Shown here piece by piece: positions 2,275 to 39,425 of a stretch of 40,196 bases of DNA. Position numbers and translations under genes: made by a program. How positions within the stretch are numbered: position 1 is the stretch's first letter; every line of letters starts with the position of its first letter. This stretch comes from a bacterium. GTDB taxonomy: Bacteria; Patescibacteriota; Minisyncoccia; UBA6257; GWB1-50-10. The stretch is from assembly GCA_027310235.1 (NCBI GenBank), contig DAIDBF010000008.1, positions 1-40,196 on the forward strand, given 5' to 3'. The notes under the pieces are model-generated. The model was not told the origin of the DNA. It ran no database searches and worked only from the letters and a program-made list of their open reading frames with translations.

Positions 2275-3372
2275 TTATAGCTCCCCCTCCAACTCCTCCA
2301 AAAGTTTCTTTGCTTTTCCCGAAATATGCTTCGGAACGCGAAGATCGAAGGTAATGTAGAGATCGCCGCGGCCCGAGGATCCGAACTTCGGCATTCCGCG
2401 ATGCGGTATCTTCATCTTCTCCTGAAGCGAGAATCCGCGCGGAATCGCCACCGTGAACTTCTCTCCGCTTATGTCTCCAAGTTCCATTTCTTTCTCAAGA
2501 AGCACATCCTGAACTCGCACTTCTTTTATGAGGTACAGATCGGATTTTCTCCTCGTAAAATGCGGATGGGGTTTTACTCTGACTACGACATAACAATCGC
2601 CATTCCCCCCGCCACGTTCACCCGTTTCTCCCATGCCCGTCACCTTTATCACTTGTCCGTCCTCAACGCCGGGCGCGATCGAGAAGTGCACGACTCTTGC
2701 GCCGAACACCCGGCCCTTCCCTTTGCAGGAAGCACACGGCGCATTCGGAACCTTTCCCGATCCGAAGCAGTCGGGACATTGCTGGACTTGGGCGAACTGA
2801 CCGAAAAACGTCCTCCGTTCGACGCGTATCTCGCCGCGTCCGCCGCACTTCGTACAGTCCTTCTGGCCTTTTTCTTTCGCATACCCGAGCCCCTTGCACG
2901 TCTCGCAGAGCACGTTCGTCTTGAAACTCACTTCCCGCGTGATCCCGTGAAACGCCTCCTCAAGCGAGATGTCCTGCACGATCTCGACGTCTGCGCCCTG
3001 GGTATACGTGTGCCGCTTCCTTCCTCCTCCACCGAACTGCTCGAAGATGCTCTCAAAAATGTCGTTCATATCGACTCCTTCTCCCGCATTCCATCTGAAA
3101 CCGCTTCCCCCGAAATCTACCCCTTCAAACGGATTTCCTCCTCCCGGCATTCCTCCTCCCTCGAACACTCTTCCGAACTGATCGTACTGGGTCTTTTTTT
3201 CCTTATTGCCGAGCACCTGATATGCTTCGTTCACTTCTTTAAATTTCTTCTCGTCTCCCCCCTGCTTGTCCGGATGGTATTGGTGTGCCAGTTTCCGGTA
3301 TGCCTTTTTTATCTCATCTTCGGAGGCACCCTTCGAAACGCCGAGTACTTTGTAGTAATCTTTCGATTCCAT
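2275..3372 (-). CDS. dnaJ: molecular chaperone DnaJ
   Basis: It has a J domain with HPD ([12 protein letters not shown]), a Gly-rich linker and four CxxCxG zinc motifs ([32 protein letters not shown]). Confidence 0.95.
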
Positions 3373-3387
3373 AACGATTCTTGAAAA

Positions 3388-4452
3388 TTAAGGAAGGATG
3401 GGAAACCTTCTGGTTCTCGTCTCAACGCTCATGACCGCAAATCCCGTCACGAGGCATAGTTTGAAAAAGATGAATCCGAGAAGTCCGATGAGCCAGTAGA
3501 GAAGCACCGCCACACCTTTGATGGAGAGAAAGAACAGTACGATCGCCGCAACGGAGAGTATGCCGCTCGCCGCAGTTCCCATCTTCCCGATATACTCTTT
3601 TCCGAGATCATAAAGAAGCGTATTTACCGACTCGTTCCTGTTGACGTCTCCGAACTGCGCCACGAACGCGGCGTTCGCCTGCTGTTTTGCCTGACTGAAA
3701 TACAATTCTTGTTGTTTCGGCGGGAGTTCACGAAATCCGATCTGCTGCGTATGTCCCCCCGTCTCCGCCACGGTGAAATTCGTTCGCTCGAGCTCTCCTC
3801 TTACCAATGTATCGATGAAGGTCTGGACCGACATTCCGAACGAGACATTCGGAATCCAGAGATGTACTACCGGCTCCGCGGTCGAAGTGACGCTCTGAAG
3901 CATCGCTCTTCCCAGCGTATCCGTAAAGTTACCCCATACGAAATAATTCAGGTAGAGCAGCAGGGAAATGAATATAAGGAATCCGCTCGTAAGCTTCGGA
4001 AGCACATTTTTCGAGACGGAAAAAAACTGCGGTTCGATGCTGTTCTCGACCGTATTTCTTCCCCGTCTGATCGCAGTACCGATAAAAAGAAAAGCGAGGA
4101 TTGCCGCCACAAGAAGATACGGAAGCGTCACGGAATCGAAGTGAGTCCGAAACACGGCAAGCGGAACAAGTATCTCGCAGAGTGTGATGGAAAAGAGCTT
4201 CCATGATCCTTTCACGAAAAAAATCTGGACAAGCTTCAGCGCCCAAAAAAGAAGTGTTGCGACCACGAACGTCCAGAAATAGGGGGGACTCGGACTCGCG
4301 GAGAAATTCATAAACCCGGAAACCGCCGCGGCGCTCGCCGCGACGCCGAGAAGCCCCAGAAGAAGCATCTTCCAGGCGCTTCTATCCGTTTCCGGCTCCC
4401 GCCGTTCACTGATTATTTCCAGGTTCGGGTTGTGAGGAAGGTTCGGCTCCAT
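3388..4452 (-). CDS. multi-pass membrane protein of unknown function inserted between dnaK and dnaJ
   Basis: A 354-aa ORF with several hydrophobic segments. The start at 4452 overlaps dnaK by 47 nt. An alternative start (MLLLGLLGV) at 4368 would remove the overlap. Confidence 0.5.
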
Positions 4453-6316
4453 TGTTTTTATTATAGAGGGACTCGCCTATCTTTTGAAGCGCCGAGGAGA
4501 GATCAGTTGAGGCGCTTGTAATGGCTTCTTTGTCTTCTCCCTGCTTCACTTCATTGAGACGTGCGATTTTTTCCGTTATATCCTTCTTCATGTCTTCCGT
4601 TACTTTATCCCCGAGATCGCGCAAGCTCTTCTCCGCCGTATAGACGAGCGCTTCCGCCTGGTTCCGTAACTCGATCAGCTCTTTCTTTTTTTCATCTTCC
4701 GTCGCGTGTTCGGCGGCTTCTTTCTTCAAACGTTCCACCTCGTCTTTACTCAAGCTCGTCGAGGCCTCGATGCGCACCGATTGCTCCTTTCCGGACGCTT
4801 TGTCTTTCGCGGAGACGGTAAGAATCCCGTTTGCGTCGATGTCGAAGGTCACTTCGATCTGCGGCACGCCGCGCGGTGAGGGAGGAATGCCGTCCAAAAT
4901 GAAGCGCGCAAGCGTTTTCACGTCCGCCATCATCGGACGTTCTCCTTGGCCGATATGTACCTCGACGGACGTCTGATTGTCGGCCGCGGTCGAAAATACC
5001 TGGGTCTTCGAAGTCGGAATCGTCGTATTCTTCTGAATCATGGGCGTCGCAACGCCGCCATAGGTCTCAATGCTCAAGGTAAGCGGCGTTACATCAAGAA
5101 GAAGGATGTCCTTCACCTCGCCTTCGGTTTTACGTCCCTCTTTCTTCGCAAGAAGAATCTCGCCTTGGATGCCGGCGCCGATTGCCACCACTTCATCCGG
5201 ATTGATACCCTGATGCGGTTCTTTGCCGAAAAGTTTGCGTACGGCCTCCTGAATCGCCGGCATTCTTGTCTGGCCGCCGACCAGAATAACCTCGTTGATA
5301 TCCGAGAGCTTGAATCCGGCACCCTTCGGCGGCGCCGTCGTCACGGTATCTTTCGTAAGCTGGATCGAGTGATCGATGTACTCCTGCACCAGCGATTCGA
5401 GTTTCGCCCGCGTGAGTTTCAGGAGAAAATGTTTCGGACCGGAAGCGTCGGAAGTGACATACGGGAGATTGACCTCCGTTTCAAGCGCGGTCGAGAGCTC
5501 GTGTTTCGCCCGTTCCGCAGCTTCCTTGAGACGCTGTAATGCGAGCGTATCTTTCGATAGGTCCACTCCTTCCTGTTTTTTATACTCCTGCACGAGATAC
5601 TCGATGATCGTTCGGTCGAAATCGTCGCCGCCCAAGTGCGTGTCGCCTCCGGTCGCTTTCACTTCAACGGTCTGTTCCTTGGTTTCAGGGTCATAACTCA
5701 TCTCGAGCACCGATATGTCAAACGTACCGCCGCCGAAGTCATATACAACGATCTTCTGGTCTTTTTCCTTGCCGAGTCCGTATGCGAACGCCGCCGCAGT
5801 CGGTTCATTGATAATACGATCAACCTTGAGCCCCGCGATCTCGCCGGCGTTTTTAGTCGCTTGGCGCTGACTGTCGTCGAAATACGCCGGAACGGTAATA
5901 ACCGCTTCGTCTATCTTCCCCCCGAGCTTCGCCTCCGCATCCGCTTTGATTTTCTGGAGCACCATCGCCGAGATTTCTTCAGGTTTGTACCACCGATCGC
6001 CCATTTGTATCTCCACTCCGCCGGTTTCGCTTTTTCTGATTTCGTACGGAAGCCATTTTTTATCGCGCTGGACCTCGGCATCTTCCCACTTGCGCCCGAT
6101 GAGCCGCTTTACCGAGTAGATGGTGTTTTTCGGATTCACGACCGCCTGTCGCTTGGCCAAAACTCCCACAAGACGCTCGCTCGCCTTGCTTAACGCGACG
6201 ATAGACGGGGTCGTTCTCGCCCCTTCGCTGTTCTCGAGAACCTTCGGCTCTCCCCCGTCCATTACGGACGCGGCCGAGTTCGTAGTTCCCAAATCGATTC
6301 CTAAAATTTTTGCCAT
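4406..6316 (-). CDS. dnaK: molecular chaperone DnaK (Hsp70)
   Basis: 636 aa with the canonical signatures [17 protein letters not shown] and [11 protein letters not shown]. Confidence 0.97.
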
Positions 6317-7829: not shown

Positions 7830-8422
7830 AATGGGAGTTCTCCTGTTCTATACTTTATGCATCGAGTATGAGAATGGTTTTATTGCTCCCCGGATGGCTG
7901 GAATCGCTCAAGATGTACGGGGGCGACGCCAATCTTGAGATTTGTATAGACGCGTTGGATGAACGCTCCGCCTCCGCCGATTACATTATCGGCGTAAGCT
8001 TGGGTGCTTTGGTTGCCCCCAAAAATATAAATCGTATATCGGGGAAAATAATCTTAGTCAATCCTCCCCTTCCAAAAAGAAGTATCTTTACTTGGTTCGT
8101 AAATTGGCTGCGATTTTTGATAACCGAAGGTTTACTTCCCGAAAGACAGAGGTTTACGAGAAACCCGATTATATTCATCGCTACCCTCGTGGATTGCATA
8201 AAACTCCTCACTACCGACTTTTCGAAAAGTTTCGACTAGCTTCCAAAAGAAAAACTAAAAGTAATCCGAGGGAAAAACGATCGGTTCTTTTGCGATCAAG
8301 ACGCGGTGAAATTTCTGAACGCAAAGAACATACCATGTATCGAGGTTAATGGAGGACACAACTGGTCCGAGGATATAGAAAAAACAATAGCCACCCTAAC
8401 GGACGTGAAAGAGAGTTCTTAG
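7826..8422 (+). pseudogene. alpha/beta-fold hydrolase (about 198 aa) interrupted by an in-frame TAG at 8237-8239
   Basis: The N-terminal half (7826-8236) carries the nucleophile elbow GVSLGA. The same frame continues after the TAG as LPKEKLKVIRGKNDRFFCDQDAVKFLNAKNIPCIEVNGGHNWSEDIEK... up to the stop at 8420-8422. That continuation supplies the Asp and His regions expected of the catalytic triad. Confidence 0.6.
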
Positions 8423-8438
8423 ACGAAGGAACTAACAG

Positions 8439-8613
8439 GCAATTATTATCCCTCGAGTGAACATTTGCCGGAGGGCGTCTGCACATTTCCGAGCGGTTTG
8501 CGCCGCCGAGCCAGGACCCCCGCCCTTAGGCGAGTCGGGTGGCGAGGAGCAACAAAGCGAGGTTGAATGTGCAACGCCAGGAGGTATTTGTGAACGAGAG
8601 GGATAATGATTGC
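8439..8613 (+). repeat. structured repeat family F3, copy b
   Basis: The outer 16-nt arms are gcaattattatccctc (8439-8454) and gagggataatgattgc (8598-8613). An inner helix pairs cgtctgcacatt with aatgtgcaacg. The conserved core is gccgagccagg...ggtggcgaggagc...aaagcgaggt. It lies between the convergent hydrolase and pilin genes, 3 nt from the pilin stop. Confidence 0.6.
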
Positions 8614-8616
8614 CCC

Positions 8617-11300: not shown

Positions 11301-11495
11301 CGATACTCCTCCTGTCTTTCGCGAGCAGAAACACTTCCTCGCAAAAATCCTGCTCGTTCATCCTCGGAGATCCGAAAATTGCACAAACTCGACCTTATGG
11401 GACTCGAACAGTGTGCAATTTTTGATTTCCTTCGTCTTCACTCGCGGATTTTTGAACTCGTTCGTGTATGCTCACTCAAGACAGGAGGAGTATCG
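11301..11495 (+). repeat. structured repeat family F1, copy 2 (starts at the base after the glycosyltransferase stop)
   Basis: A perfect 17-bp outer helix pairs cgatactcctcctgtct (11301-11317) with agacaggaggagtatcg (11479-11495). The central 11-bp hairpin pairs 11375-11385 with 11412-11422 around the conserved loop aactcgaccttatgggactcgaacag. Confidence 0.7.
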
Positions 11496-11562
11496 CTGTC
11501 GTCCATATCTAGAAAATCTCGTTTTGAAAAAAAAGAGAGTTTATTTAGGACACAAGAACAAA

Positions 11563-11736
11563 GCGATCATCATTCCTCAAGAGAACATCGGTCGGAGAGC
11601 GTGAAAAAAATCCCCGAGCAACTCGCGTCGCCGAGCCAGGCCCCTCGCCCATAGGGCGTGCAGGGTGGCGAGGAGCGATAAAGCGAGGTGGATTTTCACG
11701 CTTGGAGACCCTGTGAACGAGAGGAATAATGATCGC
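11563..11736 (+). repeat. structured repeat family F3, copy c (tandem with F1 copy 2)
   Basis: The outer 16-nt arms are gcgatcatcattcctc and gaggaataatgatcgc. An inner 10-bp helix pairs agcgtgaaaa with ttttcacgct. The core gccgagccaggcccctcgccc-atag-ggcg...ggtggcgaggagcgataaagcgaggtgg is homologous to copy b. Confidence 0.6.
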
Positions 11737-11759
11737 TTATAACAAGAAAATAAGACGGG

Positions 11760-13277: not shown

Positions 13278-14531
13278 TTATCCTTTGATTTCTTTCTTCC
13301 CGATGTAATCCTGAATCACCTCCGGGATTTTGATGGTCCCCTCTTTGGTCTGGTAGTTTTCGAGAAGCGAAAGAAGAGGACGCTGCGAGAATGCCGTCGC
13401 ATTTAAGGTGTGTACAAACTCTTTTTTCCCGTCTTTCGTCTTGTACTTCACATTGATGCCGCGCGACTGGAAGTCGGTGGTGTTGGAGCAGGAATGCGTC
13501 TCGCGGTATCGTTCCTCGCTCGGGAACCACGCTTCGATATCGAACTGCCGCGCGTCTGTCCATCCCATGTCGCCGGTGCAAATTTCAACCACGCGATACG
13601 GAATCTCAAGCGCCTGCATGAGCTTCTCCTGAAGCGAGAGCAAAAACAGATGTTCCTCCCCCGATTGTTCCGGATGTACGAACGAGTACATCTCCACCTT
13701 GTCGAATTGATGCACTCTGAAGATTCCTTTCGTGTCTTTTCCGTACGATCCCGCTTCCCTTCTGAAACACGTCGAGAACCCGACGTAGCGCCGCGGGAGA
13801 TTCTGTTCTTCGAATGTTTCGTTCAGGTGATAGGGGCCCATCGTGTGCTCGGCGCTCCCAATAAGATACAGTTCATCCTTCGGGAAGTAATACCGTTCTT
13901 CTTTCTGATCTGCCGCGAGGCGTCCCATGCCCGCATAGACATCCGGTTTAATCATGACCGGAGGCAATATCGGAGTGAACCCTTCTTTGGTTAATATATC
14001 GAACGCGAGCCGCACGATAGCGAGCTCGAGAAGCGCCATATCCCCCACGAGATATCCGAAACGGCTTCCCGAGACCTCCGATGCTTTTTTCACATTGATG
14101 ATGCCGAGTCCTTCCGCAAGCGAGAGATAATCCTTGGGAACGAAATCGAATTCCGGTTTTTTTCCCACTTCGCGGAGCGTTTTGTTTTCGGTTTCGTCCT
14201 TTCCCACTGGCACGTCGGGAAAGGGAATATTCGGCAAGCGGTTCAACAGTTCTTTCCGCTTCGTCTCGGCGGTGGCGCACTCCGCCTCAAGTTCCGAGAT
14301 ACGCTGTTTTAAAAGCTGCGCGCGGCCTATCAGGTCCTCTTTCTGTTCCTTGGCGAGTTCCTTGCTTAGTGCATTCTGCTCCGCCTTAAGTTCATCGATC
14401 GCCTTTACCTTTCCGCGCCACGCAGTATCAAGCTGAAGAAACTTATCGACGAGCTTCTTGTCGATTTTTTTCTTCTCTACTCCTTCTTTTACCGCATCCG
14501 GATTCTCTCGGATGAAATTTACGTCTAGCAT
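13278..14531 (-). CDS. serS: seryl-tRNA synthetase
   Basis: 417 aa. It has an N-terminal coiled-coil arm and class II motifs (FRREAGSYGKDTKGIFRVHQF, TLNATAFSQRPL). Confidence 0.95.
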   Translation of the reverse strand: MLDVNFIRENPDAVKEGVEKKKIDKKLVDKFLQLDTAWRGKVKAIDELKAEQNALSKELAKEQKEDLIGRAQLLKQRISELEAECATAETKRKELLNRLPNIPFPDVPVGKDETENKTLREVGKKPEFDFVPKDYLSLAEGLGIINVKKASEVSGSRFGYLVGDMALLELAIVRLAFDILTKEGFTPILPPVMIKPDVYAGMGRLAADQKEERYYFPKDELYLIGSAEHTMGPYHLNETFEEQNLPRRYVGFSTCFRREAGSYGKDTKGIFRVHQFDKVEMYSFVHPEQSGEEHLFLLSLQEKLMQALEIPYRVVEICTGDMGWTDARQFDIEAWFPSEERYRETHSCSNTTDFQSRGINVKYKTKDGKKEFVHTLNATAFSQRPLLSLLENYQTKEGTIKIPEVIQDYIGKKEIKG

Positions 14532-14738
14532 ATGCCAATTTATCTTATTTTTCGAGCCATAACATTATGGCGATGAAAAATAAGCCATAATATTGAGCAC
14601 CCCCCACCTTTTCCTTCCCGGATGAGGGTTCGTGTTCGACGATTGCGTTGTTTTTGAATGATGTTCATAATGCTTGGTTTGTTATTCAAAAGGTGGGGGT
14701 AAGGTTTTGTCGATCGCACAAGGTGCGATACAAAGCCC
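14532..14738. repeat. structured repeat family F2, copy A (fills the lysS stop to serS ATG gap exactly)
   Basis: The helices are P1 aatttat/ataatatt, P2 cttattttt/aaaaataag, P3 cccccacctttt/aaaaggtggggg and P4 atcgcac/gtgcgat. The conserved linkers are gagcacc, ggtaaggttttgt and acaaagccc. Confidence 0.7.
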
Positions 14739-16184
14739 TTATTGTTCTTCTTTCATTAACGGGAAAAAGACCGCCTCCCGCATGGGCTTATCCATAATAA
14801 CCGCAAAAAGACGCTCCGAGACGCCGAATCCCGCAGCGGGCGGCATCCCATACTCGAGCGCTTCCAAAAAATCTTCATCCAGCATCTGGGCTTCATTATC
14901 TCCCGCGGCGCGAAGCGCCATTTGCTCTTCGAATCTTCCGCGCTGATCCTCCGGATCGTTCAACTCGGAAAACCCTTTTCCGAGCTCCGTCCCTAATGCA
15001 ACGATCTGAAAACGCTCTACGCGATCCGGTTTACCGGGAACGCGTTTTGCAAGCGGCTCGATTGCTACGGGGGGATTTATAAGAAAACAGGGCTCCGTTA
15101 AATTCGGACGGACGGTTTTTTTATAGATAAGATCAATAAGCCGTCCTTTCCCGGAATTCGGTTCGAATGGGATGCCGAGTTTCCGTGCGTGCGCTTCCAA
15201 TACTTCACGCGAAACCGTTGTGAGATCGAGTGCATTGTATTTTTTGAAAACTTCGTAGTAGTCCACTTTCTTCCATTGTTTTCCCCAGTTCACCTTTTTT
15301 CCGCTATGGACCATGAGAAGCGAACCGCACGTTTTTTTGATCGTCGCCTTGAACATCTTCTCCATGAGACGCATCATATCGTCATAATCCGCATACGCCC
15401 AGTAGCACTCCATCTGCGTATAATCCTGCAGATGCTCTCGATCAATTCCTTCGTTCCTGAATATTCTTCCTATCTCGAAGACCTTCTCAAAACCCGCAAC
15501 GAGCATCTTTTTCAGAGGAAGTTCGAGAGAAATACGAAGATAAAAATCCCTGTCCAGTGCATTATGATGGGTTGCGAAAGGTTCCGCTTCCGCCCCTCCC
15601 GGTACCGGCTCCAAAACGGGTGTCTCGACTTCCAAAAAGTTCTCCTGTTTCAAAAATGTACGGATAGTCCCCCAAAACACGCTTTTCTTTTTCATGAGTT
15701 CCAAAACCTCATGATTCATGATCCCGTCGAGATACCGTTTCCTCAAACGCGTTTCGATGTCTTCAAGCCCGTACCACGAATCCGGGAGAGGGCGAAGACT
15801 CTTCGTGATTATCCTCGCATTTTTGGCAACCACGCTTTTCTCGCCGCGCTTCGTTGTTATCACTCCGCCGGCAACCTCGAGGAAATCCCCCTTGTCAAGC
15901 GTTTCCTTAAGAAGCGTGAATTCTTTCGTCTCTCCCTTCTTTAAAAGCACCTGTAGTTTCCCGCTCGCATCCTCGAGATCAAGGAATATGATACCTCCTT
16001 GATCCCGCATTCCAATCACGCGCCCCGTGAGCCACACCTTTTTCTTTCCGCGGACGAACGCCGAAAATCGCGTAAGCACTTCCGCGATATGCGCCGTTCT
16101 TTTCACCTGTATCGGATATGGATCCGCCACTTCCCGATACCGTGAAAGTTTTTTACGTCGTTCTTCGATAAAATCTTCCAACAT
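14739..16184 (-). CDS. lysS: lysyl-tRNA synthetase, class II
   Basis: 481 aa. It has an OB anticodon-binding domain and a class II core (FRNEGIDREHLQDYTQMECYWAY, GMPPAAGFGVSERL). Confidence 0.95.
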   Translation of the reverse strand: MLEDFIEERRKKLSRYREVADPYPIQVKRTAHIAEVLTRFSAFVRGKKKVWLTGRVIGMRDQGGIIFLDLEDASGKLQVLLKKGETKEFTLLKETLDKGDFLEVAGGVITTKRGEKSVVAKNARIITKSLRPLPDSWYGLEDIETRLRKRYLDGIMNHEVLELMKKKSVFWGTIRTFLKQENFLEVETPVLEPVPGGAEAEPFATHHNALDRDFYLRISLELPLKKMLVAGFEKVFEIGRIFRNEGIDREHLQDYTQMECYWAYADYDDMMRLMEKMFKATIKKTCGSLLMVHSGKKVNWGKQWKKVDYYEVFKKYNALDLTTVSREVLEAHARKLGIPFEPNSGKGRLIDLIYKKTVRPNLTEPCFLINPPVAIEPLAKRVPGKPDRVERFQIVALGTELGKGFSELNDPEDQRGRFEEQMALRAAGDNEAQMLDEDFLEALEYGMPPAAGFGVSERLFAVIMDKPMREAVFFPLMKEEQ

Positions 16185-16382
16185 GCTAATACTATCTTAC
16201 GTTTCGAGCCGTACTACGGCGATGAAACGTAAGCCATAGTATTGCGCACCGAGCACTCAACGTGAGCATCTCGGGATTCGACGATAATTGTGATGTGGTG
16301 TGATTCATGGTGTTTCTTTCGAATATCGGGGTTGAGTGCTCGGTAAGGTTTTGTGTATCGCGCTTCGCGCGATATAAAGCCC
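16185..16382. repeat. structured repeat family F2, copy B (fills the greA stop to lysS ATG gap exactly)
   Basis: The helices are P1 aatactat/atagtatt, P2 cttacgtttc/gaaacgtaag, P3 gagcactcaac/gttgagtgctc and P4 atcgcgc/gcgcgat. By my manual alignment it has 8 mismatches in 198 nt against copy D. Confidence 0.75.
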
Positions 16383-16844
16383 TTACTGTATTTTCACAAT
16401 TGTATATTTGGAGATTCCCTTGGGTGTCTGCACCTCCACCGTCTCTCCGGCGTTTCTGCCCAAAAGCTCCCGTCCTAGAGGCGATTCGTTCGAAATAAGA
16501 TCTTGAAACGGATCCGCCTCGTTCGATCCCACGAGCGTGTATTCCACGCGCGCACCATTTCTTTCAAGCGAAACCTTCGATCCTAATCGGACTGTCGTTC
16601 CTCCTTTCGGCTGTTCCTCGATGATCGAAGATGCCTTGAGGAGCTCCTCAAGTTGAACTATCTTCTGTTCCAGAAGCGACTGCTCTTCACGCGCGGCCTG
16701 ATACTCCGCATTCTCCGAAAGATCGCCGAGATCTTTCGCGTGGCGCAGACGTTCGGAAACCGAACCGCGCCCCTCGGTCCTTAATGATTGCAACTCCGCA
16801 ACGAGTGCATCGTGGCGTTCCTTCGTTAAGTATTTTTGTGCCAT
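16383..16844 (-). CDS. greA: transcription elongation factor GreA
   Basis: The sequence MAQKYLTKERHDALVAELQSL...DLSENAEYQAAREEQ... is typical of GreA. The start at 16844 gives a normal 153-aa GreA. The ORF track start at 16940 runs into repeat F2 copy C. Confidence 0.85.
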   Translation of the reverse strand: MAQKYLTKERHDALVAELQSLRTEGRGSVSERLRHAKDLGDLSENAEYQAAREEQSLLEQKIVQLEELLKASSIIEEQPKGGTTVRLGSKVSLERNGARVEYTLVGSNEADPFQDLISNESPLGRELLGRNAGETVEVQTPKGISKYTIVKIQ

Positions 16845-17060
16845 TCTTGTCTTACTTTTTAAGCCCATCGTTGTGGCGCGAAAAAGTAAGCCACAAGAAT
16901 GAGCACCCCCCACCTTTTCCCAAAAGTGCGGGGGGTTCAACTGACCTTTTGTTTTGTTGATAATGCATATATTTGTCTAAAATTGTTTTCTAAAAGGTGG
17001 GGGGTAAGGTTTTGTCGATCGCGCTTCAAGCGGTGCGTGGAGAAGCGCGATACAAAGCCC
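16845..17060. repeat. structured repeat family F2, copy C (fills the mrdA stop to greA ATG gap exactly)
   Basis: The helices are P1 attcttgt/acaagaat (which includes two bases of the greA start codon), P2 cttacttttt/aaaaagtaag, P3 ccccccacctttt/aaaaggtgggggg and P4 atcgcgcttc/gaagcgcgat. Confidence 0.7.
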
Positions 17061-18914
17061 TTATTTCTTTAATCTATTCTGATAGTACCACAAGAATATA
17101 TCCCGCGCCACCGGCACGACATTCAAACTTCCCTCTCTCGCGTTCTCGATCAAGATCACAATCGCAATTTCAGGATTCTCATATGGAGCGAACCCGACGA
17201 AGAACGCGTTCGTCTTCGTATTATTTGAAACCTGCGCCGAGCCCGTTTTCGAAGCGACGTCGATCGGAAGATCATGCAGAAGATACCCCGTACCGTACGG
17301 TTTCGTAACTCCGTCGCGCATTCCCTGGCGCACGAGCGAAATGGCACGCCCCGCTTCTCCGCTCAAATCGATCCGTATCGATTCCTTGTTTTCCAAAACA
17401 ACGGCTCCTTTCGGATCTTCCGCATCTTTCACGATGCGGGGCGTATATAACTTCCCGCCGTTCGCGATTGCGGTGATGTAATTCAAAAGTTCGATCGGGG
17501 TAACCGCAAAATCTCCCTGGCCTATGCTTACATTGAACGTATCCCCCAGCCGCCACGGTTCGCGCTTTGTCGCTTCTTTCCACGCGGCATCGGGAAGGAA
17601 TCCCGTATCTTCACCCGGAAGATCGATGCCGGTTTTCCGATCGAGTCCGAACTTTTGCCACCACTTCTTCAACCCGGAAATACCCAGTCCGCGCTGGTCG
17701 CCGAACCCGCCGCCCACTTCGTAAAAATATACATTGCTTGAACGCGCGATCGCCGAGTACATATCCACCCATCCTTGCGGGCGCCAATCCAAAAATCTCG
17801 AGGGATTCGACGGATCGTAGGGATTCGGCACATCGAGATATCCCGGCGAATAGATCTGATGCAATGGATCCAAAATTCCATCGACGAGCGCGCCTGTCGC
17901 CACAAGCGGCTTGATCGTCGAACCGGGACTGTAACGCCCGCTCACTGCTCTGTTAAACATCGGCTCGTACTTCGCATTCAAAAATTCGCTTATGGAACCG
18001 GGATTATACGAAGGAATATTGAAAAGTGCGAGCACTTCCCCGTTCTGGGGATTCATCGCGATTCCTACTCCGACATTCCTTCCGAGTCCTTGGATTGCTG
18101 TCTGCAACCGGTTGTAAAAATAATTCTGAAAATCGCGATCGATATAGGTATTCAAACTGTCGCCGATCTCCGCTTCCCGCACCGCGCGCTCGTCCTGGAT
18201 CTTCCCGCTCGCATTCCTGATAATCATCTTTTCGCCGTCAACTCCGCGGAGATACGAATCGTAAAACGCCTCGAGCCCCGCTCTCCCCATCTGATCGTCG
18301 ATCACGAGATCTTGGTGTTCCGAGAGATCTTGTTCGCTCACGAGCCCCGTATACCCGATGAGGTGCGAGAATGCCAAAGGAGAAGAAGGAACTCGTTCAA
18401 ACGAAGGATCCGCTTCGATGCCCGGCAGTTCCGCCGCAGTAATCGCCACAAGTTCGTCGCGGGAAATACCGTTTTTGAGCACCAATCGCGCACTCAAACT
18501 CCAGTCCCGTTCCCCGATCTTTTTTCGCACCTCGGCGGTATCGAGATTCAGAATCGTACTCACCGCGCCGATTACCTCAACCCGTCGTTCCGAATCGACG
18601 GGCAACATACTCGGCACGAGTACCACATCGAATGCCGGTTCATTCGCGACGAGCGGCTCGTGAAAACGATCGTAGATGATTCCCCGGGGCGCAACCTCGG
18701 TTTTCACGTCGCTCATGTTCAACACTGCGCGCTTTTCGTAAAACGAATGGCTAACCCCTCCCACGTATACGAGCTGCACCACAATCGCCAGGACCGCAAG
18801 GACCGCAATCAAGAGAAACCGTTTGAATACCTTATCCGCGAGCGGAATCTCGAGAAAGTCCTCCTCCGCCGCACGATCGGTCAAAATATCTTCAAGGTTA
18901 AGATCTCCCCGCAT
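17061..18914 (-). CDS. mrdA: penicillin-binding protein 2 (elongasome transpeptidase)
   Basis: It has the motifs STIKP (SxxK), SSN and KTGS, with a TM anchor after MRGDLNLEDIL. The start at 18914 overlaps the mreD stop by 17 nt. The 684-aa track ORF extends spuriously through mreD. Confidence 0.85.
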   Translation of the reverse strand: MRGDLNLEDILTDRAAEEDFLEIPLADKVFKRFLLIAVLAVLAIVVQLVYVGGVSHSFYEKRAVLNMSDVKTEVAPRGIIYDRFHEPLVANEPAFDVVLVPSMLPVDSERRVEVIGAVSTILNLDTAEVRKKIGERDWSLSARLVLKNGISRDELVAITAAELPGIEADPSFERVPSSPLAFSHLIGYTGLVSEQDLSEHQDLVIDDQMGRAGLEAFYDSYLRGVDGEKMIIRNASGKIQDERAVREAEIGDSLNTYIDRDFQNYFYNRLQTAIQGLGRNVGVGIAMNPQNGEVLALFNIPSYNPGSISEFLNAKYEPMFNRAVSGRYSPGSTIKPLVATGALVDGILDPLHQIYSPGYLDVPNPYDPSNPSRFLDWRPQGWVDMYSAIARSSNVYFYEVGGGFGDQRGLGISGLKKWWQKFGLDRKTGIDLPGEDTGFLPDAAWKEATKREPWRLGDTFNVSIGQGDFAVTPIELLNYITAIANGGKLYTPRIVKDAEDPKGAVVLENKESIRIDLSGEAGRAISLVRQGMRDGVTKPYGTGYLLHDLPIDVASKTGSAQVSNNTKTNAFFVGFAPYENPEIAIVILIENAREGSLNVVPVARDIFLWYYQNRLKK

Positions 18915-20094: not shown

Positions 20095-20219
20095 CCCTCA
20101 CATAACATGCATCAAGCCGTGCTGCATCCATTTCCTCATGCGGCACAGACCCGAGGCATGCTGACTAAACGATCTCTTTTCTTGAGACATACGAACGTAA
20201 TGCATGTTATGTGAGGGGT
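20095..20219. other. structured intercistronic spacer F4 (fills the mreB stop to mreC ATG gap)
   Basis: A perfect 18-bp outer helix pairs ccctcacataacatgcat (20095-20112) with atgcatgttatgtgaggg (20200-20217). An inner hairpin pairs gtgctgca (20119-20126) with tgcggcac (20139-20146). Confidence 0.6.
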
Positions 20220-22543: not shown

Positions 22544-22559
22544 ATAAGAAGGAATAAAA

Positions 22560-22589
22560 ATCTATCGAGGCCGGGCCTCCTTAATATTG
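22560..22589 (-). terminator. GC hairpin (GAGGCCCGGCCTC) with a downstream T-run; first copy of a 30-nt direct repeat
   Basis: The minus strand reads CAATATTAAGGAGGCCCGGCCTCGATAGATTTTTATTCC, downstream of the Cys-rich gene. The same 30-mer, with 2 mismatches, recurs at 24429-24458. Confidence 0.5.
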
Positions 22590-24415: not shown

Positions 24416-24428
24416 GCGATGTTTTTCA

Positions 24429-24458
24429 ATCTATCGAGGCCGGGCCTCGATAATATTG
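24429..24458 (-). repeat. second copy of the 30-nt hairpin repeat, between the ddl stop and the Cys-rich gene ATG
   Basis: The sequence atctatcgaggccgggcctcgataatattg compares with atctatcgaggccgggcctccttaatattg at 22560-22589. Confidence 0.6.
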
Positions 24459-25594: not shown

Positions 25595-25792
25595 GAGGAA
25601 TCTCTCCCACTCCCTCACGAGCAGAAACGTTCGCTCGCAGGAATTCACCTCGTTCGTCCTTGCACCCGCGGCAATTATGCAAACTCGACCTTATGGGACT
25701 CGGACAGTGCATAATTGCTCGTGTGCGTCGTCCTCACTCGGGAATTCCTCAACTCTCTCACGTATGCTCGTGAAGGAGGAAAGAGATTCCTC
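25595..25792 (+). repeat. structured repeat family F1, copy 3
   Basis: An outer 11-bp helix pairs gaggaatctct (25595-25605) with agagattcctc (25782-25792). A further helix pairs tcacgagca with tgctcgtga. The central 11-bp hairpin pairs 25671-25681 with 25708-25718 around the loop aactcgaccttatgggactcggacag. Confidence 0.7.
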
Positions 25793-29674: not shown

Positions 29675-29688
29675 GATACACGAATGAG

Positions 29689-29815
29689 TCCCGCACCTTT
29701 TGAGGATTGTGGGAGTTAAGCGTAAGGTTAGAGTAAGATGCAACAAACGAAAAATGTCGTAAATAACCAGAGGATGATGCGCTTCGTAAGAAGCGTGATC
29801 CTCTAAAGGTGCGGG
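29689..29815 (+). promoter_or_regulatory. structured 5' leader family F5, copy 1 (ends at the ATG of the PEGA-domain gene)
   Basis: The outer helix pairs tcccgcaccttttgaggat with atcctctaaaggtgcggga (one U-U mismatch). An internal GNRA hairpin is gcgcttc-gtaa-gaagcgt. The last 32 nt are identical to the element upstream of rpmJ. Confidence 0.65.
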
Positions 29816-34903: not shown

Positions 34904-35080
34904 TTTTTTATTTTTTTTTGACCTTTGTAATGGTCTTATCATCCCACTTGAGAAAAGGAACGTCAATGTAAACTGTGGATAAGGGAGGGGGCGAGTTTTG
35001 TTTTGTTTTCCCTCATCTCGCACAAAGCTCCGTTTGGAGCACTCCTCCTCGTCACTCCTCGGGAAATGAATGGAACTACT

Positions 35081-35132
35081 TGAGTTTACACTAAGTTATT
35101 TAGCTATGGCTAAATAACTTAGTGTAAACTCA
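35081..35132. other. perfect 24-bp AT-rich palindrome with a 4-nt loop
   Basis: The sequence is tgagtttacactaagttatttagc-tatg-gctaaataacttagtgtaaactca. It lies between the rpsI terminator and the transporter operon. Confidence 0.8.
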
Positions 35133-35185
35133 CATAAGGGCTGTTTTATTTTTACCATCGCCCACTCCTCACAACGGTGGCGCAA

Positions 35186-35213
35186 CAAAAAATCCCCTTT
35201 CGGGGACTTTTTT
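35186..35213 (-). terminator. intrinsic terminator of the ribosomal protein operon
   Basis: The minus strand reads AAAAAAGTCCCCGAAAGGGGATTTTTTGTTG, beginning 2 nt after the rpsI stop. Confidence 0.8.
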
Positions 35214-35214
35214 G

Positions 35215-36420: not shown

Positions 36421-36618
36421 GCCAATACTATCTTGCGTTTCGAGCCGTACTACGGCGATGAAACGTAAGCCATAGTATTGCGCACCGAGCACTCAACGTG
36501 AGTGATTCGGGATTCGACGATAGTTGTGATGTGGTGTGATTCATGGTGTTTCTTTCGAATATCGTGGTTGAGTGCTCGGTAAGGTTTTGTGTATCGCGCT
36601 TCGCGCGATATAAAGCCC
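36421..36618. repeat. structured repeat family F2, copy D (fills the rpoA stop to rplQ ATG gap exactly)
   Basis: It is 198 nt and differs from copy B (16185-16382) at 8 positions by my manual alignment. P2 is cttgcgtttc/gaaacgtaag, which contains a G-T pair when read on the plus strand. Confidence 0.75.
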
Positions 36619-37399: not shown

Positions 37400-38002
37400 T
37401 TACCGGGCAAAAAATTGAACGACCAAGTTTATATCAAATGGTAATTGTAACCCTTCGAGCGGCGGGTTCGAAACGCACTTTCCCTCGAGCTGCTCCGGTT
37501 TGAGTTCGAGCCACGAAGGTGCCGAATATTCCTTGAGGCGAACATGGATATCCTCGAAGAGCTTCGAGTCCCGCGACTCCGGACGGATACGTACGACATC
37601 TCCTATTCTCACACGAAATGAAGGAATTGTCACTTTTCTTCCGTTCACAAGGATGTGCCCGTGCGAGACAAGCTGGCGGGCGATGCGGGGCGATTTCGCA
37701 AATCCCATGAGAAACACGACGTGGTCCAACCGCGTCTCGAGCCGAAGCAGGATGTCTTCCTGCGAATGGTGGGAGAACAAGTTTTGCATCTGGCGGTTGT
37801 TGAAACCGTACGAAAGCTGAGCTTTCTGTTTTTCCTGAAGCTGACGCCCGTAATCGGAGACCATCCGACGATGTTTCTGTCCGTGCATCCCGGGACGGTA
37901 CGGATGACGCACCATCGCGCACTTCGGCGAATTACAACGATCCGCTTTGACAAAAAGCTTTACCCCGAGGGATCGTTCTTTTTTTTCCTTAATGCTTCTC
38001 AT
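37400..38002 (-). CDS. rpsD: 30S ribosomal protein S4
   Basis: 200 aa with SDYGRQLQEKQK and an S4 RNA-binding domain (RLDHVVFLMGFAKSPRIARQLVSHGHILVNG). Confidence 0.93.
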   Translation of the reverse strand: MRSIKEKKERSLGVKLFVKADRCNSPKCAMVRHPYRPGMHGQKHRRMVSDYGRQLQEKQKAQLSYGFNNRQMQNLFSHHSQEDILLRLETRLDHVVFLMGFAKSPRIARQLVSHGHILVNGRKVTIPSFRVRIGDVVRIRPESRDSKLFEDIHVRLKEYSAPSWLELKPEQLEGKCVSNPPLEGLQLPFDINLVVQFFAR

Positions 38003-38004
38003 AG

Positions 38005-38457
38005 CTATACTCTCCTTGTTTTTCGCGGACGAGGTCCGTTATGCGGGATCGGCGTTACATCCCTGATTGCAATGATATTCAATCCCCTTGCAGCAAAGGA
38101 TCGGATCGCGGAATCTCTTCCGCTTCCCACGCCGCGTATGCGGATCTCCACTGTCGAGGGGCCGGTTTTCTCTATCTTCTGAGCGATCGCTTCCGCAACT
38201 TTCGATGCGGCAAACGGCGTTGCTTTCTTCGGACCGGAAAATCCGAGCGATCCCGCAGACATCCACGCAATTACTTTTCCCTGCATATCGGTCACGGTGA
38301 TGATCGTATTGTTATAGCTCGTTTGGATATAGATTCTCCCCTGTTCCACGCGCGATTTTCCTCCCGTACTTGCCTGTTTGGCAACGGTGCTTTCCATCGA
38401 CTCATTCTCTTTAATGAGTTCTTCTTTCGATTTTTGGATTACTTTCTTCTTACCCAT
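38005..38457 (-). CDS. rpsK: 30S ribosomal protein S11 (with an N-terminal extension)
   Basis: It carries GRIYIQTSYNNTIITVTD, GVGSGRDSAIR and DVTPIPHNGPRPRKTRRV. Confidence 0.93.
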   Translation of the reverse strand: MGKKKVIQKSKEELIKENESMESTVAKQASTGGKSRVEQGRIYIQTSYNNTIITVTDMQGKVIAWMSAGSLGFSGPKKATPFAASKVAEAIAQKIEKTGPSTVEIRIRGVGSGRDSAIRSFAARGLNIIAIRDVTPIPHNGPRPRKTRRV

Positions 38458-38564
38458 ACCTTAATTTTTAATTTAAAATTTTTAATCAAATCTTAATATT
38501 TTAAAACTAAAAATTTCATCATTTAAAATTGAATAAAAATTTCAAATTAAGAATTACAAATTTA
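38458..38564. other. extremely AT-rich 107-nt spacer between rpsM and rpsK
   Basis: It is composed almost entirely of A and T, with reiterated aattttta/ttaaaat units. Flanking DNA is of ordinary composition. Confidence 0.7.
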
Positions 38565-38948
38565 TTATTTAAGCTCCACCTTTCTCTTTCCGCTTCCGGC
38601 GGTCTTTCGCACGTTGCCGCGCACTGTTCTCGAATTCGTCTTCGTACGCTGACCCCTTACGGGAAGTCGTCTCACGTGGCGGACGCCTCGATATGCTTTC
38701 ACATCCTTCAATCGATTGATGTTCTGCCGGATTACCTGCCGCAACTCTCCTTCCACCTTTACATGTTTTTCGAGATAAGATTGAATTTTGTTCACTTCCT
38801 CGGGCGTCAGATCCTTCGCGTGTTTTTCAGCGTCGATATGAGATGCTTCGAGAATTTTAATGGCGTTTGTCGGTCCTACCCCGAAAATATAACGAAGCGC
38901 GATGCGCGTTTTCTTGTTATCAGGAATATTTACGCCGGCTACTCTCAT
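38565..38948 (-). CDS. rpsM: 30S ribosomal protein S13
   Basis: It starts MRVAGVNIPDNKKTRIALRYIFGVG and contains YRGVRHVRRLPVRGQRTKTNSRT. Confidence 0.94.
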   Translation of the reverse strand: MRVAGVNIPDNKKTRIALRYIFGVGPTNAIKILEASHIDAEKHAKDLTPEEVNKIQSYLEKHVKVEGELRQVIRQNINRLKDVKAYRGVRHVRRLPVRGQRTKTNSRTVRGNVRKTAGSGKRKVELK

Positions 38949-38953
38949 TGTTG

Positions 38954-39070
38954 TTATCCTTGTTTCTGCTTATGCTTCGGATTTTTTTTGCAAATGACAT
39001 AAAGCCGTCCTTTGCGGCGGACGGTTTTGCAATCACTGCAAATCTTTTTTACCGACGCTCGTACTTTCAT
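38954..39070 (-). CDS. rpmJ: 50S ribosomal protein L36
   Basis: It is not in the ORF track because it is only 38 aa. My translation is [38 protein letters not shown]. It sits in the canonical position between infA and rpsM. Confidence 0.9.
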
Positions 39071-39194
39071 CCCGCACCTTTAGAGGATCACGCTTCTTAC
39101 AAAGCACAATACTCTCCGGTTATTTACGACATTTTTTTGTTGCATTTTATCTCAATTTTACATTCCCACAACCCTCTAAAGGTCGGGATTCATA
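39071..39194 (-). promoter_or_regulatory. structured leader family F5, copy 2 (fills the infA stop to rpmJ ATG gap exactly)
   Basis: The minus strand reads AATCCCGACCTTTAGAGGGTTGTGGGA...GTAAGAAGCGTGATCCTCTAAAGGTGCGGG-ATG. The outer helix pairs CCCGACCTTTAGAGG with CCTCTAAAGGTGCGGG (one bulged G). It is homologous over its full length to 29689-29815. Confidence 0.65.
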
Positions 39195-39425
39195 CTATAA
39201 CCTTCTCACGATCCGTCCGCGTTTGTCGGTCGGACTTGTCATTTCGAGTATTACCCGATCGCCGGGAATTACGCGAATTCGATGAAGTTTTAACTTTCCC
39301 GCAAGGTGTCCGAGAATTTCTTTTTTCTCTTCCCCCTCCCTTCCTACATTCACGCGGAAGAGAAGACCCGGCAAGGCCTCTTCAACTTTTCCCTCGACTC
39401 TCAAGAAGCTCGGATCGGTTTTCAT
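39195..39425 (-). CDS. infA: translation initiation factor IF-1
   Basis: 76 aa with an S1-like fold (RVEGKVEEALPGLLFRVN...GKLKLHRIRVIPGDRVILEMTSPTDKRGRIVRR). Confidence 0.9.
   Translation of the reverse strand: MKTDPSFLRVEGKVEEALPGLLFRVNVGREGEEKKEILGHLAGKLKLHRIRVIPGDRVILEMTSPTDKRGRIVRRL

Follow-up and report, generated by a model that had tools for sequence, protein, structure and literature searches.

Hairpin-rich F2 elements inserted immediately after TAA stop codons in the operons of a Patescibacteria clade

The 40,196-nt stretch analyzed here (the window; contig DAIDBF010000008.1 of assembly GCA_027310235.1, from an ultra-small bacterium of the Patescibacteriota) carries four copies of a structured element of ∼200 nt, F2, in the gaps between the genes of operons. 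F2 inserts immediately 3′ of TAA in tightly packed, highly expressed operons, in one polarity and with neither terminal inverted repeats nor a detectable target duplication. Selection on the strand antisense to the genes of the host maintains its three hairpin domains (P1/P2, P3, and P4), and the gene strand carries a conserved open relay frame. With moderate confidence, F2 is read here as a family of small mobile elements, non-autonomous and belonging to the broad class that includes miniature inverted-repeat transposable elements (MITEs), REP sequences, and mycobacterial interspersed repetitive units (MIRUs), tolerated in operons through a MIRU-like relay open reading frame (ORF).

All four copies are present where a first-pass annotation, made from the sequence of the window, had placed them, and they share one orientation. 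Copy A (14532–14738, plus strand) occupies the lysS–serS junction; its core is 14534–14738, the “AT” at 14532–14533 being leftover spacer. Copy B (16185–16382, plus strand) lies at greA–lysS, copy C (16845–17060, plus strand) at mrdA–greA, and copy D (36421–36618, plus strand) at rpoA–rplQ. The flanking genes are on the minus strand, mrdA encoding PBP2, and the names mrdA, greA, lysS, and serS agree with the Pfam domains of their orthologues. Every copy adjoins a TAA stop, as had been proposed, and ends 0–2 nt before the next ATG; in copy C, the 5′ end, GCCAT, overlaps the greA start codon (16842–16844). The order of parts given earlier is also right: P1 enclosing P2, a TGAGC/TGCGC linker, P3 with its long loop, an AA linker, and an extended P4. 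In copy A, these helices are P1 14538–14543/14587–14592, P2 14544–14553/14575–14584, P3 14599–14610/14689–14700, and P4 with its extension 14703–14719/14723–14737; in copy B, they are P1 16190–16195/16236–16241, P2 16196–16205/16224–16233, P3 16248–16259/16334–16344, and P4 with its extension 16347–16363/16367–16381. In the window, a covariance model of F2 picks up these four copies and no others (E = 1e-42 to 1e-50), and 652 kb of unrelated viral DNA gave it no match. Four exact occurrences of the linker GGTAAGGTTTTGT are present in the window, all on the plus strand; shuffled sequence gives 0.71 matches even when up to two mismatches are permitted. Copies B and D lie at unlinked loci and are 96% identical.

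Further copies were sought by exact-pattern scans of genome and metagenome collections and then with the covariance model. The metagenome-assembled genome FK3.bin18 (loci L008 and L010) is occupied at mrdA–greA, rpmJ–rpsM, and rpsK–rpsD; the metagenome-assembled genome WY3.bin51 (GCA_021814165.1; L013) at rplQ–rplM; two metagenome contigs of identical sequence (L017 and L021) at rplB–rpsS; and a Hainich groundwater contig (L019) at tuf–rpsJ, rplV–rpsC, and rpsN–rpsH. With the four in the window, this amounts to 12 occupied junctions across five genomes, all within translation-related or cell-envelope operons, and in 12 of 12 the structure strand is antisense to the genes, in a single orientation. 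Copies are 143–216 nt long, with four in the 40 kb of the window. Two of the L019 copies were added by the covariance model; one of them (L019c, at tuf–rpsJ) has just 143 nt, its P3 being reduced to a short hairpin. At 10609–10715 of L019, after rpsN, a truncated F2 (GGGCTTTGT fused to a P3-like hairpin) stands in tandem before a full copy. Genuine copies are confined to a few related uncultured bacteria, the remaining pattern matches being chance occurrences in coding DNA. Phage and plasmid collections searched with blastn had no match, and no F2 was found in three IMG/VR scans or in a covariance-model screen of 80 chance loci; looking up the L36 protein by exact identity likewise returned nothing. 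F2 is confined to a narrow clade of Patescibacteria (Parcubacteria/Paceibacterota-like). Two lineages also contain relatives of F2 that lack P4 (L035 15583–15727 and L038 11887–12039, both minus strand; 38 and 36 bits), with the order GCCAAU-P1/short P2-UUGAGCACC-P3-GGUAA, at an equivalent position directly upstream of an mreB paralogue.

Its LysS homologues mark the organism as a member of the Patescibacteria/CPR, of the Parcubacteria/Paceibacterota type. The closest relatives of the window (LysS 87%, 85%, 80%, and 69% identical) have no F2 in the operon mreB-mreC-mreD-mrdA-greA-lysS-serS, where neighboring genes overlap or lie 1–31 nt apart. WY3.bin51 is among these F2-empty operons, yet it holds F2 at rplQ–rplM. 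The mrdA–greA junction is empty in L024, L027, and L030 and has an orthologous copy in FK3.bin18 (L010). Two junctions that are filled in FK3.bin18 are empty in the window. At rpsK–rpsD (38000–38007, minus strand; “CAT ag CTA” on the plus strand), the rpsK stop is TAG with the junction empty and TAA with it filled (L008 2650–2762); the other is rpmJ–rpsM (38946–38956, minus strand; “CAT tgttg TTA”; filled at L008 ∼1637–1823). Empty forms are likewise seen at rpoA–rplQ in L038 (“TAA ta ATG”) and at rpsK–rpsD in L041 (“TAA ct ATG”). These empty orthologous junctions show that F2 is an insertion into gaps originally of ∼0–30 nt. At mrdA–greA, the empty junction of L027 reads “...aaaaaaaTAA att ATGgcacaa” and the filled one of the window “...aaagaaaTAA/GGGCTT.../ATGgcacaa”; because the C terminus of PBP2 and its stop are identical between the two, F2 must have entered exactly after the pre-existing stop. 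In L008 (∼1625–1640), past an N-gap inside the F2 copy, the scaffold resumes with “cat aatttg tta,” an empty-type rpmJ–rpsM junction, which points either to a population with both filled and empty forms or to a scaffolding artifact (coverage <1×).

Every F2 locus begins with TAA followed directly by GGGCTTTGT, and this includes L019b, where the truncated copy adjoins the rpsN stop. The 12 of 12 junctions that follow TAA compare with a background of 65% TAA stops (P ∼0.006). The ends of F2, GCCAAT... and ...AAAGCCC, are not complementary, so that terminal inverted repeats are lacking, and no consistent target-site duplication was found, the flanks being TAA on one side and 0–2 nt plus ATG on the other. 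Duplication of a TA target was rejected, being compatible with just 3 of 11 copies (A, L013, and L008). Also rejected was a guide/cleavage-site pairing in the style of IS608, between the flank (A/G)TAA and TT(G/A)T, which shows no covariation. The greA–lysS gaps of L027 (“aggtttggc...”) and L030 (“gagtttgtat..”) resemble F2 termini, and from this likeness they may be footprints of F2 deletion. A site-specific “TTG” core with the attB form GGGCTTTGGC was considered; since only one empty site (L027 greA–lysS) looks so, it is better read as such a footprint. The copy in L010 combines the P1/P2 of window copy C, at the orthologous locus, with the P3–P4 of the other FK3.bin18 copies, and L013 and L008 have a common P1/P2 at different loci; the P1/P2 and P3–P4 modules reassort between copies.

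The exact filling of gaps had first been taken as a sign of a built-in expression function. This does not hold, as the junctions are empty in relatives and unrelated hairpin families fill gaps equally exactly; the exactness results from insertion into gaps of near-zero length. The absence of a Shine-Dalgarno (SD) sequence from the F2 gaps, also pointed out in the first-pass annotation, is true but not specific to F2, only 2 of 32 window genes having even a 4-mer SD core at −22 to −4, as against 22% of random 19-mers. Many window genes, many of them first genes, have a −10-like box 6–10 nt before the ATG. The upstream sequences suggest that most genes of this organism are translated without an SD sequence, by leaderless-type initiation or by coupling, and this is a trait of the genome, not of F2. 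The tail after P4 that had been called terminator-like received no call in a terminator scan; it lies outside the element and is T-rich because it is complementary to the final, A/G-rich codons of the gene upstream.

The structure of F2 was assessed in a model-based alignment of 10 distinct copies from five genomes (the window and four related Patescibacteria). At the predicted pairs, 97.2% of cells pair, a value that falls to 37%–48% when the partners are slid by one to three columns, and 25 of the 46 pairs have changed on both sides; none of 500 shuffles reached the observed values. Pairing at this level, with two-sided changes beyond those of shuffles, indicates that the four helices are real and under selection, and the covariation noticed among the window copies is thereby sustained in a wider sample. 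RNAalifold was also run on the copies, and its consensus consists of three independent hairpins with unpaired ends. The plus strand shows 18 G·U/U·G cells, spread over eight independent positions, one of them an invariant U·G in extended P4; the lone C·A cell sits in a locally misaligned stretch of copy A. Because all eight wobble positions are G·U on the plus strand, the pairing must be selected on the strand antisense to the genes, which is what had been deduced earlier from fewer sites. Mutational bias does not account for the G·U excess, as the deamination expected on the sense or lagging-template strand would skew the wobbles in the other direction. Both strands fold far better than dinucleotide shuffles, and the plus strand is the more stable: −89.2 kcal/mol (z = −8.6) versus −69.7 kcal/mol (z = −6.7) for the minus strand in copy B and −76.5 versus −64.4 kcal/mol in copy A.

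No known RNA family had been recognized in F2, and Rfam 15 indeed has no match at gathering thresholds on either strand of the whole window; at a permissive E ≤ 10 over 14400–17200, only chance-level matches appear. ARAGORN finds no tRNA or tmRNA. Three further resemblances were dropped by eye: a T-box leader (it would be on the wrong strand, and neither greA nor rplQ encodes an aminoacyl-tRNA synthetase), a hammerhead core (GAUGAAAC; no CUGAUGA), and a kink-turn in P2 (its register does not match, and copy C does not conserve the loop). The first-pass annotation had left F2 as an antisense RNA, a DNA hairpin, or an mRNA element. Selection for pairing on the antisense strand makes a purely intercistronic mRNA reading insufficient, so that a DNA-level or antisense molecule has to be considered; no promoter supports the part of that proposal that concerned an independent antisense RNA gene.

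What the first-pass annotation saw as a structured, covarying four-helix family stands; the mobility of F2 and an ORF on its sense strand had been missed. In nine of nine long copies, the gene strand has an ORF of 37–45 codons whose conserved ATG start codon lies in the P3 loop, 64–93 nt inside F2, and whose stop falls 6–11 nt from the end of the element, which is 6–13 nt before the next ATG. In the window, these putative relay ORFs, all on the minus strand, are 14540–14668 in copy A (42 codons; stop 8 nt before the serS ATG; P = 0.034 versus shuffles), 16192–16308 in copy B (38 codons; 7 nt before the lysS ATG; P = 0.031), 16852–16968 in copy C (38 codons; 7 nt before the greA ATG; P = 0.027), and 36428–36544 in copy D (38 codons; 7 nt before the rplQ ATG; P = 0.029). 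Over all copies, an ORF of such length and end position has P = 0.011–0.037 per copy against dinucleotide shuffles. In L019a and L019b, a different frame is used across the conserved core (WGWVLTVVA versus GGGCSILWL), which indicates that the open frame is kept and the peptide is not; the relay peptides have no homologues in a protein database. A conserved small protein or type I toxin-antitoxin system was accordingly rejected, as the peptide is unconserved, the frame differs in L019a/b, and L019c has no such ORF.

In the predicted fold of the sense RNA, the relay ATG lies in an A/C-rich open region and has a probability of being unpaired of 0.65–0.79 in eight of the nine long copies, compared with 0.37 for the whole element; in the remaining one, L019a, the value (0.27) is that of an earlier in-frame ATG, which the script took as the start. 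The ATG of the downstream gene is predicted to be sequestered beside P1 in the seven copies outside L019 (0.12–0.34). In copy B, for example, the values are 0.69 for the relay start region and 0.12 for the lysS ATG region.

A scheme that is consistent with these features can be outlined. The molecule that folds for mobilization would probably be single-stranded DNA of the antisense strand, or else an antisense-sense transcript from a master copy, and the folded single strand would be recognized by an enzyme acting in trans. The operon mRNA would carry the complementary, C/A-rich version of F2, which folds less well and may expose an ATG in the open P3 loop. From there, the relay ORF would run through the P3 3′ arm and P1/P2 and stop 6–13 nt before the downstream cistron. 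Ribosomes translating this ORF would open up the hairpin in which the start of the next gene is hidden and then reinitiate there, which would restore the termination-reinitiation coupling on which these SD-less operons depend. The orientation observed may be the one that survived selection, in which the mRNA holds the weaker, translatable complement with the relay ORF.

Several points weigh against the reading of F2 as a mobile element with a relay ORF. The whole known set is small, ∼13 copies, and since these are related, the per-copy P values of the ORFs are not independent. Neither the window nor ∼284 kb of related loci yielded a transposase, a recombinase, or an autonomous version with an ORF, and the IMG/VR scans brought up no ORF-bearing relative. 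GC skew is negative throughout on the structure strand and suggests the leading-strand template, a skew that is confounded by coding bias, and the folded strand is also the transcription template, which is the opposite of the single-strand paradigm of IS200/IS605. The minimal 143-nt copy L019c carries no relay ORF; by analogy with other bacteria, its tuf–rpsJ junction may be an operon boundary. The downstream ATG is not predicted to be sequestered in two L019 copies (0.44 and 0.59), and ribosome loading at the relay ATG without an SD sequence is suggested by predicted accessibility alone.

A more far-reaching form of the same idea, put forward tentatively and thought rather unlikely, is an undescribed mobilization system that recognizes the three-hairpin single strand and places F2 precisely after the TAA of highly expressed operons. 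F2 would then be its substrate or non-autonomous form, and the built-in translational relay would have evolved for life in the essential operons of minimal genomes. Such a system could, for example, link insertion to stop codons or termination, or use a master copy whose plus-strand transcript guides a recombinase or reverse transcriptase or acts as its catalytic RNA.

One rival explanation makes F2 a derivative of the IS200/IS605 family of the type called palindrome-associated transposable elements (PATEs). A Y1 HUH transposase (TnpA) would bind its subterminal hairpins, move it in the form of single-stranded DNA, and insert it 3′ of a short target (xTAA). The absence of both inverted repeats and target duplications is as expected, as are the hairpins near both ends (P4 9 nt from one, P1/P2 5–6 nt from the other), the short TAA flank conserved 5′ of the element on the gene-sense strand, the strict orientation in 12 of 12 cases, and a strand-asymmetric pairing that suits a single-stranded substrate. 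IS200/IS605 top strands, however, carry both the target and the hairpins and do so on the lagging-strand template. In F2, the strand with intact pairing is opposite to that with the 5′ TAA flank, so that the model fails on strand logic, and GC skew (confounded by coding bias) suggests that the paired strand is the template of the leading strand. The hairpins of the two ends are moreover dissimilar, and neither tnpA nor tnpB was seen in any locus examined. This explanation is therefore considered improbable.

Another possibility is that F2 is an element of the host that acts in cis in the sense mRNA, as a processing site for RNase III or another RNase, a stabilizing site, or a structured initiation platform that tunes translation-related operons, with mobility secondary. 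The sense strand does fold far better than shuffles (z = −5.2, −6.7), its long perfect helices are plausible RNase III substrates, F2 lies exclusively inside highly expressed operons, and the mrdA–greA copy is kept in two genomes. On sense RNA, however, all eight wobble positions become C·A mismatches. Close relatives function with the junctions empty, the set of occupied junctions varies among genomes, and unrelated element families are found at the same junctions. A host function of this kind is unlikely as the primary role of F2.

It is very unlikely that each copy instead encodes a cis-antisense small RNA of ∼200 nt that is read off the plus strand, ends at P4, and pairs with the operon mRNA to regulate the flanking genes. 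Selection of the pairing on the plus strand, its folding energy (−76 to −89 kcal/mol), the invariant U·G in extended P4, and the moderately T-rich flank that follows would all suit such a gene. No promoter-like site is present in or upstream of any copy, though, the upstream sequence being unrelated coding DNA at each locus; a promoter scan inside F2 found none on either strand. P4 was not scored as an intrinsic terminator, its T-rich tail lies outside F2, and the presence/absence pattern and module shuffling are better explained by a selfish repeat. Least credible of all is that the P1 3′ arm is an outward promoter (TAnnnT 4–7 nt before the ATG) that gives a leaderless downstream mRNA: many window genes without SD have −10-like boxes 6–10 nt before the ATG, and TAnnnT hexamers can be found at sense 3′ ends (TAGTAT-TAGC-ATG, TAAATT-GGCAT-ATG, and TAGCAT-TGGCAC-ATG), but the spacing is mostly too short (4–5 nt) for transcription to begin at the A of the ATG, a −35 or TG extension is lacking, the promoter scan finds nothing, and the hexamer is not conserved (TAAGAC in copy C, AACACT in L019a), because P1 covaries freely.

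Other structured inserts occupy the junctions of these operons. At mreB–mreC, a 125-nt palindrome (20095–20219; arms CCCTCACATAACATGCAT) fills the gap exactly, from TGA to ATG, and contains a 35-codon ORF with its stop 3 nt before the mreC ATG; the gap has equal length in L024, and in L027, the genes overlap. A two-copy hairpin family (29686–29815, plus sense, and 39071–39203, minus sense) ends directly at the start codons of a beta-propeller gene and rpmJ, with the termini ...CCTCTAAAGGTGCGGG-ATG and ...AAAGGTGCGGG-ATG; in L008, the infA–rpmJ gap is ∼10 nt. Homology of F2 P3 with the hairpin that ends in AAAGGTGCGGG was considered and is unproven, as only arms of ∼11 nt align. A palindromic family, GCTACGAAATACGAA (GCTACGAAATACGAATTTTG...TTCGTATATTCGTA...), is present at three junctions of L032 (1–116, 579–704, and 2150–2260) and at rpoA–rplQ in L035 (10760–10885) and L042 (2216–2339); in these loci, it occupies greA, lysS, and rpoA–rplQ junctions, and a remnant, ccgtaattcgtagagaaatca, is seen in the lysS–serS gap of L024. 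Yet another family, TCGCGAACAATGCGAAT...AATTCGCATTATTGGTGATTACTCT, takes up four alpha-operon junctions of the closest relative, L038 (∼2530–2665, 3050–3176, 3630–3759, and 5498–5619). Three of the four unrelated insert families tested in these operons also carry a terminal ORF, of 35 codons at mreB–mreC (P = 0.024), 21 at infA–rpmJ (P = 0.054), and 29 in the L032 palindrome (P = 0.020). The rpsM–rpsK spacer of the window (38458–38564) is an extremely AT-rich stretch of 107 nt without a relay ORF; the corresponding gap in FK3.bin18 (L008) is 1 nt.

Elsewhere in the window, two large, related structured inserts (8240–8616 and 11301–11759; repeat families D2, D14, and D16) flank an oppositely oriented PMT glycosyltransferase gene, and part of this repeat recurs at 25602–25769. 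A 31-nt intergenic repeat, 94% identical between 22559–22589 and 24428–24458 and containing the GC hairpin GAGGCCGGGCCTC, flanks a 573-aa gene of unknown function. A long hairpin insert (2039–2274) lies ∼180 nt upstream of the xseA promoter, and rpsI is followed by a terminator and a perfect palindrome of ∼60 nt (35024–35214).

Genomes of the candidate phyla radiation (CPR)/Patescibacteria are regarded as streamlined and repeat-poor. In one clade of this group, operon junctions, even those between ribosomal protein genes, have been colonized repeatedly by several families of structured insertions, of which F2 is the most elaborate. F2 offers a natural example of a selfish element that sits between essential, translationally coupled genes without SD initiation and apparently brings its own relay ORF, an idea proposed for mycobacterial MIRUs and little explored. 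Its strand-specific selected structure and its insertion after TAA point to an uncharacterized, single-strand-based insertion mechanism. There are practical consequences as well: short-read contigs end at F2 elements, repeats of this kind break short-read CPR assemblies at ribosomal operons, and they could be misannotated as regulatory RNAs.

No description of such elements in Patescibacteria was found in the literature, and F2 is best placed by comparison with known repeats. Like a DDE-type MITE, it is small, non-coding, and multicopy, with filled and empty sites; it differs in having neither terminal inverted repeats nor target-site duplications. With REP/BIME, REPIN, ERIC, Correia, and RUP, it shares the character of a multicopy structured extragenic repeat within transcription units, and repeats of these types can affect mRNA processing, stability, or translation. 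Those repeats are either simple palindromes (REP, 20–40 nt) or MITEs bounded by inverted repeats with TA or similar duplications, and they occur in either orientation, whereas F2 has three distinct hairpin domains, no inverted repeats, and a single orientation and is fixed at the base after TAA. PATE repeats resemble F2 in being non-autonomous, in lacking inverted repeats and duplications, and in their subterminal hairpins, one-sided short flank, strict polarity, and strand-asymmetric structure. They are set apart by the target flank and intact hairpins, which in F2 are on opposite strands, and by the inferred replication-strand placement, which is reversed.

The attC sites of integrons offer a different parallel. 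They too are conserved in structure and variable in sequence, lie directly after the stops of ORFs and between co-oriented ORFs, and have a recombinogenic folded strand that is antisense to the ORFs, as is the pairing strand of F2. An attC site, however, is a single hairpin formed from its two ends (R″/L″ with L′/R′), with GTTRRRY cores and an integrase nearby. The ends of F2 do not pair with each other and have no RYYYAAC/GTTRRRY cores; the element lies between essential genes in conserved order (ribosomal proteins, aminoacyl-tRNA synthetases, greA, and PBP2), and the window contains no integrase.

The comparison with MIRUs is based on their published descriptions. MIRUs insert at start codons and have a coupled internal ORF (PMC12548453; PMC3184786), whose coupling to the downstream gene is thought to minimize the cost of insertion (Supply et al., 1997, as cited in PMC3184786 and PMC12548453). 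Like F2, they are small repeats lodged between the cistrons of operons; a site that is filled in one relative can be empty in another, the repeats keep a single orientation with respect to the genes, and they carry an internal ORF. MIRUs are also cotranscribed with those genes. They are 40–100 bp long, often in tandem (variable number tandem repeats), with tetranucleotide direct repeats and imperfect terminal inverted repeats, and with an ORF that overlaps the flanking stop and start codons (−4 spacing), whereas the ORF of F2 starts in an internal loop. F2, from another phylum, has 143–216 nt, three covarying hairpins selected on the antisense strand, and no inverted repeats or target duplication, and a tandem arrangement was seen once, as a truncated plus a full copy. 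The relay ORF of F2 may be functionally analogous to that of MIRUs, with a different geometry. F2 thus falls in the known broad class of small bacterial intergenic repeats and is a member of no family tested. It is distinguished by three hairpin domains that covary and are under selection on the antisense strand, by insertion at the base that follows TAA, by strict polarity, and by residence in the ribosomal protein operons of a CPR lineage.

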